Assembly: GCA_964493365.1 (NCBI GenBank)
Contig: CAZBOE010000008.1
Coordinates: forward strand, 281-50,990
DNA from: an uncultured Tepidisphaeraceae bacterium
GTDB taxonomy: Bacteria; Planctomycetota; Phycisphaerae; Tepidisphaerales; Tepidisphaeraceae
DNA length: 50,710 nt
Reading direction: 5' to 3'
Below, one piece after another: positions 2,729 through 18,857 of the stretch. The translations under genes and the position numbers were made by a program. The notes beneath the pieces were generated by a model, which did no database searches, was not told the DNA's origin, and saw only the letters and a program-made list of their open reading frames with translations. Numbering within the stretch: the stretch's first letter is position 1; every line of letters starts with the position of its first letter.

Positions 2729-3478
2729 TCAGAGGGTCGCAAGCCGCAGCCTGACCAGCAGGTCGCTCAGTCCGGCCTGCGCCGTGGGCAACTCCGGCAG
2801 CGTCGATTCGTTCATTTCCTGCTCAAGACACGACACCAGCCGACGATACTCCGCCTCATGAAACGGCATGTCGGCGGCGTCAAGCGTACCTTGCTCGGGC
2901 CCGCCCAGCTTCCGCGCGATGAGGTCGGAAATGTAGCCGAGCCTGTACACCTCATTGAGGTGAACCAGGTTGGCCTCGACCACGTGTGCCCGCATGAGGT
3001 GTATCCCGGTCAGCAGCACACGATAGGTATAGAGCAGCGGCTTCACCCGCGGCCGCTCTTCCTTGGCAAACAGCTTCCACTGCGTCTGGGCGAAACCGAG
3101 ATAGTGATGAGCATGGAAGCGGGTGAGGCACTGCCGCGAAAGCTCGATCAACTCGCGATGCGCCTCGGTCGTGCGCAGCACGATCGGCGAGAGCAGTTGC
3201 TCCAGCACATAACCATTCTTCTTGAGCATCATCGCCATGAACTTCGCCAGGTCGTGCGTCACCAGATCGACCTCCAGCCCCTGTTCGACGGTCGATACCT
3301 CGATCGTGTCCTGCCGCGCATGAAGCCCGAGCGCCTCGCACGCCGGCACGACGTGCGTGCCGCGCAGGTCATAGTCAGAGTCGGGCGACGGAAAGCCATA
3401 AAGGTGGGCGCCGCTGACGGTCAGGAAGACCAGCGGATAGGGCTGTGCCGCGATGATCGGATCGAGACGGACATCCAT
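2729..3478 (-). CDS. Pol-beta superfamily nucleotidyltransferase, PF10127 (RlaP/YcgL-like) family
   Basis: The N-terminal VSGAHLYGFPSPDSDYDLRG matches the G[SG]-x-YG...DxD NTase active-site pattern. It is followed by a helical C-terminal domain typical of the family. It is a paralogue of the upstream gene. Confidence 0.7.
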   Translation of the reverse strand: MDVRLDPIIAAQPYPLVFLTVSGAHLYGFPSPDSDYDLRGTHVVPACEALGLHARQDTIEVSTVEQGLEVDLVTHDLAKFMAMMLKKNGYVLEQLLSPIVLRTTEAHRELIELSRQCLTRFHAHHYLGFAQTQWKLFAKEERPRVKPLLYTYRVLLTGIHLMRAHVVEANLVHLNEVYRLGYISDLIARKLGGPEQGTLDAADMPFHEAEYRRLVSCLEQEMNESTLPELPTAQAGLSDLLVRLRLATL

Positions 3479-15354: not shown

Positions 15355-15428
15355 GATGTTGCTCGATACGACGCCCCGGCCGCCGAAGCTGCCGGCGGCC
15401 GGTCACCAAAGGGTCACGCCCGACCGGG

Positions 15429-16931
<1,503 letters not shown>

Positions 16932-16999
16932 ACAAAACCTCGTTTCTTCAGCCGATCACCCGGCACCCCGTCCGGTCGGGAAGGGAATGCCCTGACAAC

Positions 17000-17033
17000 A
17001 AAAAACCCCGAAACGACGGTGATCGCTTCGGGG
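17000..17033 (-). terminator. Intrinsic terminator located 5' of the MATE start codon (part of the attenuator)
   Basis: The minus-strand RNA reads CCCCGAAGCGAUCACCGUCGUUUCGGGG followed by UUUUUUGUU. The stem is CCCCGAA/UUCGGGG plus inner CGA/UCG. Confidence 0.7.
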
Positions 17034-17074
17034 CGGTTCTTTTTCCGGTGTTATGGATGAGTCGGTGGGGAAGA

Positions 17075-17161
17075 CTACCGGCCATGCGTAACACGCAACC
17101 CGCCAGGGCGATCACCGTCGATGACCTCGACGGCCGCGATGTTGCATGCAATGGCTTTCAT
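17075..17161 (-). CDS. Candidate 28-codon leader peptide ORF (MKAIACNIAAVEVIDGDRPGGLRVTHGR) of the MATE attenuator
   Basis: The ATG at 17161-17159 is preceded by GGAAGAGGAACG. The ORF covers attenuator segments 1 and 2. It is not in the supplied ORF track because it is under 60 aa. Confidence 0.4.
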   Translation of the reverse strand: MKAIACNIAAVEVIDGDRPGGLRVTHGR

Positions 17162-17200
17162 CGAAAACGTTCCTCTTCCGGGTTCCTCTGCCGCGGGCGA

Positions 17201-17228
17201 ATACTACCCGACCCACAAGACAAAGCAA
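17201..17228 (-). promoter_or_regulatory. Sigma-70-like promoter candidate for the MATE leader (TTGCTT-16 nt-TAGTAT)
   Basis: Reverse complement: the -35 TTGCTT lies at 17228-17223 and the -10 TAGTAT at 17206-17201. The site is about 40 nt upstream of the leader ORF ATG. Confidence 0.45.
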
Positions 17229-17515
17229 ACGGCCATTTCGTCTGCCTGTTCGATGCCTCCCCCCCGCGCCAAACCAGCCAACACGGATCAGCGCCTTGCG
17301 GGGCCGAGCCGTCGCCGGCGGGCATGACCTCCCCGGGGGTCGCACCCATGGGCTACAAACCCGAGCCCTGCTGTGGGACCGTGCACGCAAAGTGGCGCGA
17401 AGCGGCTCACCTCGATATACTGCCGAGCACCACGGGGGGCACTCAATGCGATGCGAGAGCACCACACGCAACGGCGTCCCCAAATCACGAAAACGTTCCT
17501 TCAAAGGTGGCAAAG

Positions 17516-18760
17516 GTGGCAAAGGTCAATCGAGACGTTGTATTGCGATCGCTTGTGTTCGTCGCAGTCGCGATGCTTGGCACCCATGTCCGCGCGGTCG
17601 AACTGCAATGTCTCAACGGCACGATCACCATCGACTTGCCACCAGACCTTTTGACAGACACGCCCAAGCCCGGCGCTCCCGCATCCGGGCGAATCGCCGA
17701 AGGTGACGGAATCGAAATCGCGATCGACGCCAATGTCGTCCCGGCCGACGTCGTAGCCGGAGATCCTTTCGAGTACTTCAGGCAGCGGCCGACGCTCTAC
17801 CGGCTGGTTCAGGTTGAGGAAACAAAACACCAGTCAGCCGGTGGACTGCTCGGAACGGTCGAGCGCCTCGACGTCAACCAGTTTCAGTCGAACCTGCGTC
17901 GCGAGCAGGACGCACCGGTCACGCTCTACACGCTGGTGATCTACGACTTCGGCACTGCGATCAACATCCGCGCCGATGTGGGATGGTGGGTCGATCCGGT
18001 CCACCGCGAGCGGGTCAAGTCGATTTTGCGCAATGTCCGCACGACACGTAATCCCAAGCTGCCTCACGGCGTCACCGTGGGATCGCTCGTTGAGCTTCGC
18101 GCCTACGAGGCGGCGGATCATGGCAATCGCGCCACCACATTGCCTGCCAATCCTTCCACCCAACCTTCCGCCGATCCGTCGTCGGTCATTGCCGTCGAAA
18201 CGGCGAAACGCGACCCCAACCCCTATGACATATTTGCAGCGCTCATGAAGCAGCATGGTGCCGTGCCAGTTCAAGACGCGGTGACCCAGACCATCGATGG
18301 CGTGACGGTGATCGTCCCCGCGCCGCCTCATGCGTGGAGGGCCGCTGCTGATGCGGGTGAATTGTCATACATGATGGTTGGCGTCGGCTTCTGCACGGGG
18401 ATGACGCAGCAAAGCCGAAAGACCGTTCCTGAGGTGGTGCGGAGTATGCTCGAGGTGCATCAGAAGGGCATGGGTCTGAGCGTCGAAGACGTCAAACTCG
18501 GCGATAAGCCTGCCAGTCTGGTGCGGGTGGTGATGGACGCGCAACCGTTCTGGATGCCGCCCAATACCCCGCCCGAGCAACCTCGCCGCGCCGAGGGGAT
18601 CAACCTTGTCTTCGAGATCAATGGCCGGACAGTCGTCATCTCCATTTTCTACTCGAGCTCTGCCACCGACGCGCAACGAAAGCTGTATCGTGACGCATTG
18701 CTCGGTGTCACCCTCAAGCCGGCCGACAAACCCGTAGAAGGCGAGCCCGCCGCGCCCTGA
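17516..18760 (+). CDS. Hypothetical secreted protein (no recognisable domain)
   Basis: The reading frame is long, with a signal-peptide-like start (..VLRSLVFVAVAMLGTHVRA). AAAGGTGG lies upstream of the GTG at 17516, and alternative starts are 17507 and 17543. GC content is visibly lower than in neighbouring genes. Confidence 0.6.
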   Translation: MAKVNRDVVLRSLVFVAVAMLGTHVRAVELQCLNGTITIDLPPDLLTDTPKPGAPASGRIAEGDGIEIAIDANVVPADVVAGDPFEYFRQRPTLYRLVQVEETKHQSAGGLLGTVERLDVNQFQSNLRREQDAPVTLYTLVIYDFGTAINIRADVGWWVDPVHRERVKSILRNVRTTRNPKLPHGVTVGSLVELRAYEAADHGNRATTLPANPSTQPSADPSSVIAVETAKRDPNPYDIFAALMKQHGAVPVQDAVTQTIDGVTVIVPAPPHAWRAAADAGELSYMMVGVGFCTGMTQQSRKTVPEVVRSMLEVHQKGMGLSVEDVKLGDKPASLVRVVMDAQPFWMPPNTPPEQPRRAEGINLVFEINGRTVVISIFYSSSATDAQRKLYRDALLGVTLKPADKPVEGEPAAP

Positions 18761-18813: not shown

Positions 18814-18857
18814 GTTTAGAAACAAAGACGGCGAGCCGCACGCGCGACCCGCCGTCT
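18814..18857 (-). terminator. Candidate intrinsic terminator for the VWA-rhombosortase-small ORF operon
   Basis: The minus-strand reads AGACGGCG-16 nt-CGCCGUCU followed by UUGUUUCU. The stem is 8 bp but the loop is large. Confidence 0.4.

Follow-up and report, generated by a model that had tools for sequence, protein, structure and literature searches.

A candidate isoleucine-responsive transcription attenuator upstream of a MATE–ileS gene pair in a Tepidisphaeraceae bacterium

Introduction

When an efflux gene is preceded by a short open reading frame (ORF) and an intrinsic terminator, what would the ribosome on that ORF be sensing, and for the benefit of which gene? This question is raised by a leader in a 50,710-nt stretch of DNA (hereafter the window) from an uncultured Tepidisphaeraceae bacterium (assembly GCA_964493365.1, contig CAZBOE010000008.1), which lies directly upstream of a gene encoding a MATE family efflux transporter. 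A first-pass annotation had read the leader as a four-segment attenuator of the MATE gene and had favoured drug- or stress-induced ribosome stalling over amino-acid sensing, as the leader peptide contains no run of a single residue. Here, comparison with related loci leads us to consider it likely that the element is a classical ribosome-mediated transcription attenuator, which reads the charging of tRNA-Ile and controls a leader–MATE–ileS operon. All window coordinates refer to the minus strand unless otherwise indicated, and the leader region was inspected from 16931 to 17240.

Results

Read 5′ to 3′, the leader begins with a candidate promoter (17228–17201), comprising a putative −35 box TTGCTT (17228–17223), a 16-nt spacer and a putative −10 box TAGTAT (17206–17201). 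It is followed by a Shine-Dalgarno (SD)-like sequence, GGAAGAGGAACG (17179–17168), whose GAGGA core (17175–17171) is located 9 nt 5′ of the putative leader start codon. The leader ORF (17161–17075) opens with an ATG at 17161 and contains 28 codons plus a stop codon (17077–17075); the predicted peptide, MKAIACNIAAVEVIDGDRPGGLRVTHGR, includes three isoleucines, Ile4 (ATT, 17152–17150), Ile8 (ATC, 17140–17138) and Ile14 (ATC, 17122–17120). Segment 1, GCGGCCGUCGA (17137–17127, ORF nt 25–35), starts at the nucleotide right after the Ile8 codon (ORF nt 22–24). Segment 2, UCGACGGUGAUCGC (17121–17108, ORF nt 41–54), forms the 5′ strand of the antiterminator: its stretch CGACGGUGAUCGC (17120–17108) is perfectly complementary over 13 nt to segment 3, GCGAUCACCGUCG (17026–17014), inside the terminator hairpin, and its continuation GGCGG (17104–17100) pairs with CCGCC (17036–17032). 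The intrinsic terminator (17034–17000) has a stem GCCCCGAAGCGAU/GUCGUUUCGGGGU of 13 pairs (17034–17005) followed by a U6 tract (17005–17000), and 68 nt separate the end of its T-run from the MATE ATG (16931). The promoter boxes, the SD-like site, the ORF with its start and stop codons, the perfect 13-nt complementarity and the terminator with its U6 tract are all as the first-pass annotation had described them.

To compare the competing structures, the leader was folded with RNAfold. The hairpin CCGUCGA/UCGACGG between segments 1 and 2, also proposed by the first-pass annotation, was recovered as a core of 8 bp at −12.6 kcal/mol, and inclusion of GCG..CGC gave 11 bp with a 3-nt bulge at −16.3 kcal/mol; this 1:2 hairpin is present in the terminator-enforced optimal fold. 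The 13-bp perfect duplex between segments 2 and 3 (2:3, the antiterminator) was calculated at −24.6 kcal/mol and is used in the minimum free energy (MFE) fold of 16995–17195, while the terminator stem (3:4) was calculated at −21.4 kcal/mol. Folds of the whole leader with either state enforced proved to be near-isoenergetic (−69.0 kcal/mol for the terminator and −69.5 kcal/mol for the antiterminator), and the MFE fold flips between them depending on the chosen transcript ends. The terminator and antiterminator of the window are thus predicted to be mutually exclusive, and the modelled leader is bistable.

We then asked how often such a complementarity arises by chance, taking as the measure the longest stretch of the terminator hairpin that has a perfect complement in the 158 nt preceding it. 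A 13-nt complement was reached only once when these 158 nt were dinucleotide-shuffled 5,000 times (p ~2e-4), and never among 2,730 position-matched 30-mer/upstream pairs taken across the window, the maximum among the latter being 12. The results showed that the 13-nt complementarity between terminator and leader exceeds chance.

Relatives of the locus were gathered via homologous MATE proteins and the contigs encoding them. The homologues share 55–62% identity with the window protein and are named in their sources as Tepidisphaeraceae or Phycisphaerales (Planctomycetota). MATE protein scans of genome and metagenome contig collections gave one useful relative, L001, the others being ~30% identical and having no ileS nearby. 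Seven distinct relatives (L001, L007, L009, L013, L014, L016 and L018) share a module located directly upstream of MATE, which consists of a promoter-like sequence GTTTGAC(T/A)...TA(G/C)(T/C)AT, an 18–20-codon ORF, and a terminator ACCCYGAGGCG...CGCCUCRGGGU followed by U5–7. Where present, the module is always on the same strand as MATE and directly 5′ of it. The window −35 box TTGCTT matches TTGACA at 3 of 6 positions, and a consensus promoter scan made no call; the window promoter aligns with that of the seven relatives, with the TTG and TA..AT columns invariant, and homology is evident on inspection between the L013 promoter CCGTTTGACTTTGGTGAGGTGGTCGATAGTATTCGC and CCGTTTGCTTTGTCTTGTGGGTCGGGTAGTATTCGC of the window. 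GAGG or GGAG motifs occur in L007, L013, L016 and L018 at distances like that of the SD-like site in the window, and in L001 and L009 so few nucleotides separate the leader ATG from the −10 box that a nearly leaderless mRNA would result. The leaders span only ~110–130 nt and contain little conserved structure beyond the terminator. When a covariance model derived solely from the seven relatives was run on the window together with 57 kb of control loci, the single significant match was the window terminator module (17049–16998; 19.8 bits, E ~7e-4). A MAFFT alignment of the full leaders including the window was not used for the ORF, since it wrongly placed ATCGACGG against the ATG of the relatives.

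The predicted leader peptides of the relatives are MKTIALIIIRSPRRIRRV (L013), MEFIAPILIIRHSHKRCRA (L014), MIVIAPDILIASPRLYRRV (L018), MLIIAPAIRVRSPRHARV (L016), MHALAIITIKDSIHRSYRA (L007), MKLNRINLIDRAIAWEGVAV (L009) and MKTPAPNMIIRSGRKTVRS (L001). Analysis of the leaders revealed that Ile is their commonest residue, accounting for 28 of 160 residues (17.5%) versus 3.2% in the MATE protein and isoleucyl-tRNA synthetase (IleRS) of the window; a binomial test against a background of 4% gives p = 6e-11, to be read with the common descent of the eight leaders, which makes the enrichment statistics not independent. Against an empirical control of 541 ATG-initiated ORFs of 15–30 codons from the same DNA, the p values of the individual leaders were 0.002–0.07. 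Within the leader ORFs, 28 of 33 AT[TCA] triplets are in frame, with 4 and 1 in the other two frames (p = 1.5e-9), which argues that the signal consists of Ile codons and not of AU-richness. The leader codons are ATT (15), ATC (11) and ATA (2), while the adjacent genes use ATC at ~90%. With the ORFs lined up by hand from the ATG, the Ile4 position of the window is also Ile in L013, L014, L016 and L018, and the Ile8 position in L013, L016 and L018. No conserved peptide arrest motif was found across the leaders, in which the Ile positions and their neighbouring residues vary; once Ile and the residues specified by RNA-pairing strands are set aside, the peptides differ widely. Given this strong and specific in-frame enrichment in the relatives, the earlier preference for drug or stress stalling over amino-acid sensing is not supported.

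The gene after MATE offers a matching target. In the window, the MATE gene (16931–15429; TIGR00797, 185 bits versus a cut-off of 147), which scores under the cut-off for NorM equivalogs, is the first structural gene and is followed after 74 nt by ileS, encoding isoleucine–tRNA ligase (15354–12454; TIGR00392 equivalog, 826 bits versus a cut-off of 621). This neighbour had been overlooked when the MATE pump alone was taken as the implied target. The MATE→ileS adjacency was found in 10 of 12 distinct readable loci of Tepidisphaerales type, and the gaps between the two genes in related loci range from overlapping, or 3–12 nt, up to 131 nt. Neither an intrinsic terminator nor a T-run was detected in the MATE–ileS gap of the window or of nine relatives, and a search for a second leader or terminator in these gaps found none. 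In each of the seven loci with a leader where the sequence extends far enough to tell, ileS lies downstream (the L013 contig stops after MATE), and both MATE homologues without ileS next to them (L023 and L024) lack the leader. For the 12-locus table of leader presence versus ileS linkage, a hand-computed one-sided Fisher test gave p ~0.15, which has the predicted direction and is not significant alone. The adjacency of ileS and the in-frame Ile enrichment in the relatives together suggest that the signal is most likely Ile-tRNA charging, for which ileS would be a sensible target.

As a separate observation, the MATE–ileS spacer of the window contains a GC-rich 11-bp hairpin (15402–15376), CCGGCCGCCGG-CAGCU-UCGGCGGCCGG, which has no U-tract and lies 24 nt before the ileS ATG; strong spacer hairpins are also present in L009, L014, L018 and L019. 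The window hairpin might serve in RNA processing or stability, or might act as a terminator despite having no U-tract, and so bears on the co-transcription of ileS.

Comparison of the relatives provided different degrees of support for the individual helices. In the terminator stem, 100% of cells are paired and both partners have changed in 4 of 10 pairs; these compensatory changes were matched by only 1 of 500 shuffles, and slid registers pair at 25–60%. For the antiterminator, the best upstream partner of the terminator 5′ arm overlaps the leader stop codon in all seven relatives, at −9 to +7 of the stop, with the sequence CGC NNN UAG GGG or similar, and in one fixed register 86% of cells pair versus 35–57% when slid. 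This 2:3 pairing is conserved with no covariation beyond shuffles, so that the antiterminator helix of the relatives rests on conservation. The ortholog comparison suggested by the first-pass annotation thus upholds the promoter, the short ORF and the terminator, and leaves the 2:3 pairing without covariation. The candidate 1:2 helix tested in the relatives, in which GCCCC of the Ile-codon region would pair with GGGG 3′ of the stop, is paired at 70%, which does not exceed the value for a slide of +1, and we make no claim that the relatives have the four-segment layout. The earlier reading as a ribosome-mediated attenuator with an exclusive terminator and antiterminator is therefore supported, except for a 1:2 helix in the relatives.

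Against this background, the window copy is apparently a derived variant, in which an ancestral stop codon was lost and the 13-bp antiterminator was gained. Segment 2 occupies ORF nt 41–63 in the window and nt 46–65 in the relatives, i.e., the same ORF position. The window sequence CGC-CCT-GGC-GGG appears to line up with CGC-GTC-TAG-GGG of the relatives, which suggests that the stop was lost and the ORF extended by 10 codons. The antiterminator would have grown to 13 perfect bp through sequence newly present in the terminator loop, which is itself enlarged. With the stop codon lost from segment 2, a terminating ribosome could no longer occlude the antiterminator. An alternative-frame 11-codon ORF in the window, MQHRGRRGHRR (ATG at 17147, extending to 17112), was considered and rejected, as it lacks Ile codons, an SD and a counterpart in the relatives; its UGA stop lies inside segment 2 and mimics the stop-in-antiterminator geometry of the relatives.

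Ribosome positions were modelled with a footprint from −15 to +13 of the A site on nascent transcripts ending before segment 4. In six of the seven relatives, the predicted capture of the terminator 5′ arm was 0.73–0.86 with the ribosome on the early Ile codons and fell to 0.33–0.50 with the ribosome on the stop codon. In the window, the modelled antiterminator capture did not respond to placement of the ribosome on Ile4, on Ile8 or on the stop codon (0.74–0.78).

Discussion

How would the leader work? Transcription would start a few nt past TAGTAT, and the 28-codon leader would be translated as RNA polymerase proceeds. When charged Ile-tRNA is scarce, the ribosome would stall at the early Ile codons, and with Ile8 in the A site its footprint would cover segment 1. 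Segment 2, left single-stranded, would then capture the emerging segment 3 (17026–17014) to form the 13-bp antiterminator, the terminator would be blocked, and the polymerase would continue into MATE and a co-transcribed ileS, raising IleRS. When Ile-tRNA is plentiful, the ribosome would run through, segments 1 and 2 would re-pair behind it as the 11-bp hairpin, segment 3 would pair with segment 4, and transcription would end at the U6 tract. The relatives may follow a simpler logic, in which segment 2 (CGC NNN UAG GGG) spans the stop codon and the terminating ribosome occludes the antiterminator directly. In the window, a ribosome at the distant stop codon would not reach segment 2, so that termination under Ile sufficiency would depend on a kinetic 1:2 trap. 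The window copy would thereby illustrate how such a switch is rewired, the loss of the occluding stop being compensated by a stronger 1:2 hairpin and the 13-bp antiterminator.

Several results weigh against this interpretation. On the side of the RNA, besides the missing covariation of the 2:3 pairing and the unsupported 1:2 helix in the relatives, the models separate the states only weakly in L007 (predicted capture of 0.92 at Ile6 and 0.82 at Ile7 versus 0.62 at the stop), and in L013 a ribosome at the late Ile15, which lies on the antiterminator strand, reduces the predicted capture to 0.32. In the window, the modelled ribosome at the stop codon leaves segment 2 uncovered (capture of 0.77 versus 0.78 for the free RNA), and Ile8 is the only well-placed Ile codon; stalling at Ile14 would put the ribosome over segment 2 and promote termination. 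Once complete, the terminator prevails at equilibrium in every modelled ribosome state. Equilibrium pair probabilities with a complete terminator are uninformative for a kinetic switch; in the E. coli trp attenuator the terminator also dominates at equilibrium, and the decision is kinetic. On the side of the leader and operon, the window leader alone is weakly enriched in Ile (3 of 28 codons, empirical p = 0.059), the leaders are not independent samples, and the covariance match to the start of the window ORF (17161–17137) is not significant (5.8 bits, E = 6.3). Three MATE–ileS loci (L019/20, L021 and L022) have no leader, which implies that the element is not obligatory, and the GC-rich spacer hairpin at 15402–15376 and a possible internal ileS promoter count against the co-transcription of ileS.

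The reading advanced by the first-pass annotation, a drug- or stress-induced stalling attenuator of the erm/bmrCD kind that serves the MATE gene with ileS as a mere passenger, draws on the MATE transporter as first structural gene and on a terminator/antiterminator architecture of the right kind; some drug-sensing leaders are also Ile-rich, such as ErmCL with its IFVI arrest motif. The leaders here share no peptide motif, and the variable context of their Ile residues fits sensing at the codon level better than sensing of a nascent peptide. They also prefer ATT, a rare Ile codon, and the element co-occurs with ileS in seven of seven cases and is absent from the two ileS-less MATE homologues. 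Arg-X-Arg-like strings do occur in the distal leader of several relatives and resemble macrolide arrest motifs (PMC12583479), but their Arg codons coincide with the CGC-rich antiterminator strand and are hence explained at the RNA level, and the window leader has no Arg-X-Arg motif. We regard this reading as hardly probable. The leader would most likely tune IleRS, together with the co-transcribed MATE, to Ile-tRNA charging, rather than act as a sensor of ribosome-targeting drugs.

The alternative structures need no translation, and translation of the leader is a prediction, so a switch that works independently of the ribosome (a riboswitch, a T-box-like tRNA sensor, an RNA-binding protein or temperature) or an independent small RNA of ~190 nt with its end at the terminator, with the ORF incidental, also has to be weighed. 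A search of Rfam at the gathering threshold found no family in the whole window or in 11 related loci. The T-box family (RF00230) gave no match at the gathering threshold and none at E ≤ 10 in 16800–17900, and the amino-acid leader families (Leu, His, Thr, Trp and similar) gave none either. Permissive searching of 16800–17900 returned weak matches to small-RNA families, NsiR1 (19.4 bits; gathering threshold 39) and anti-hemB (12.6 bits; gathering threshold 49.5), at the terminator only, where they span just the hairpin and the U-run. A ribosome-independent device sits poorly with the short leaders of the relatives and their paucity of conserved structure besides the terminator, and an untranslated RNA would leave the preserved ORF, its length, its ATG and its in-frame Ile codons unexplained. 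The overlap of the antiterminator strand with the stop codon in seven of seven relatives and the constant placement directly upstream of MATE on the same strand point the same way, and we consider such a device very unlikely.

A further possibility accepts an Ile attenuator for the family and holds that the window copy has decayed or been rewired, giving constitutive read-through by way of its stable 13-bp antiterminator, or constitutive termination. The loss of the stop from segment 2, the presence of only three Ile in 28 codons, the degenerate −35 TTGCTT, the modelled capture, which stays at 0.74–0.78 with the ribosome on Ile4, Ile8 or the stop, and the greater stability of 2:3 (−24.6) relative to 1:2 (−16.3) and 3:4 (−21.4) are in its favour. 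Yet the perfect 13-bp complement and the 11-bp 1:2 hairpin abutting Ile8 look maintained or newly selected, the two global states are isoenergetic, and Ile4 and Ile8 have been retained at positions that are Ile in four or five relatives. Hence, we assign a low but real probability to decay or rewiring, and prefer a functional Ile attenuator in the window as well.

Among known systems, the proposed Ile attenuator most resembles pheM–pheST, in which leader-peptide attenuation sets synthetase expression by the charging of the synthetase's own tRNA. While pheST is the textbook synthetase operon under leader-peptide attenuation, Ile-leader control of ileS appears undescribed. Both systems have a leader ORF with cognate codons and a terminator with an antiterminator upstream of synthetase genes, pheM–pheST being that of E. 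coli and other γ-proteobacteria. Attenuation of pheST in γ-proteobacteria is cited in PMC1262725. The systems differ in that the locus studied here concerns Ile and IleRS in Planctomycetota (Tepidisphaerales), places MATE between leader and synthetase, and has no sequence or Rfam relationship to pheM–pheST. With the trpL, ilvL, ivbL, hisL, leuL and thrL leaders, it would share the 1:2/2:3/3:4 logic and the position of the control codons at or before segment 1, where Ile8 lies in the window. Use of rare codons at sensing positions is known for leuL, and Ile is one of several amino acids sensed by ilvL. The operons under those leaders encode biosynthetic enzymes, not a synthetase plus a transporter, and the codon runs of the leaders are tighter, in contrast to the three dispersed Ile codons of the window; the relatives further differ from them in the unsupported 1:2 helix and in the stop codon located inside the antiterminator strand. 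RNA-level control of ileS is known from T-boxes (PMC1262725; PMC11297988; PMC7583486). These T-boxes, transcriptional in Firmicutes and translational in Actinobacteria, share both the gene and the signal, tRNA-Ile charging (PMC1262725; PMC11297988), but they bind tRNA directly through a structured RNA of ~200–300 nt and have no leader peptide. The ermC/bmrCD/vmlR-type leaders likewise combine a short ORF and alternative structures before a resistance or efflux gene, with ribosome stalling as the trigger (which would also apply here); they depend on arrest of the drug-bound ribosome on specific peptides, whereas in-frame Ile codons and ileS are what is conserved in the present case. In the literature, we found no leader-peptide attenuator of ileS and none in Planctomycetota, although the survey of synthetase attenuators by Lopatovskaya et al. 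(2010) may list similar elements.

An attenuator of this type requires a ribosome closely behind RNA polymerase, and its conservation would constitute genomic evidence for transcription–translation coupling in Planctomycetota, in which the spatial separation of the two processes is debated. The conserved MATE–ileS pairing is itself unexplained, and an inhibitor-responsive resistance module is one candidate explanation. The leader, MATE and ileS might together protect the cell, as a self-contained unit, from IleRS inhibitors found in nature, such as mupirocin-like compounds made by competitors in soil: inhibition of IleRS would lower Ile-tRNA charging, ribosomes would stall at the leader Ile codons, and MATE and IleRS would be induced. 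We regard this as unlikely. If true, it would account for the retention of MATE, in 10 of 12 Tepidisphaerales-type loci, between ileS and a leader that senses Ile, and it would partly rescue the idea of drug induction, via tRNA charging rather than a drug-bound ribosome. Efflux-mediated mupirocin resistance is known in soil Pseudomonas, via an RND pump (PMC13188873), which makes an inhibitor-responsive operon of pump and target a testable speculation.

Other features of the locus

The first 35–55 residues of the window MATE protein are unmatched in the relatives, with alignments beginning at residues 34–55. The MATE gene may thus actually start farther downstream than 16931, in which case its start codon would be farther from the terminator than stated above.

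The leaderless MATE–ileS loci carry other structures upstream of MATE. In L019/L020, a long near-perfect inverted repeat, GTGTAGCCGGCGAGCTTGC ... GCAAGCTCGCCGGCTACAC, is found ~200–290 nt upstream of MATE in place of the Ile leader, and L021 contains a different long inverted repeat, AACCACAGAGGGCACAGAGAA ... TTCTCCGTGCCCTCTGTGGTTAA, at a comparable place.

Upstream of the window leader, the next real gene is apparently on the opposite strand, which places the leader in a divergent promoter region. Between this gene and the leader promoter there are ~300 nt of GC-rich sequence (17230–17500). On the minus strand, the 13-nt sequence AGGAACGTTTTCG is repeated directly and without mismatch, occurring at 17488–17500 and 17162–17174; both copies end at start codons, namely the GTG of a 66-codon ORF (17488–17288, minus strand) and the leader ATG, and the repeat looks like a duplicated ribosome-binding region. 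Just 5′ of the promoter region, CAAAGGTGG is present twice in tandem (17502–17519). Comparable motifs are located upstream near the promoter region in L001 (~3185–3275; GGTGACC/GGTAC.../GGGACGGAAAG repeats) and in L019 (~2410–2445; TTTTCACGTCTTCACG twice), and these short tandem motifs may be operator sites for divergent or upstream genes. Farther away, a strong terminator-like hairpin with 14 pairs, 10 of them G–C, and a T-rich tail was found on the minus strand at 18857–18826, opposite to an apparent plus-strand gene that ends at 18760.

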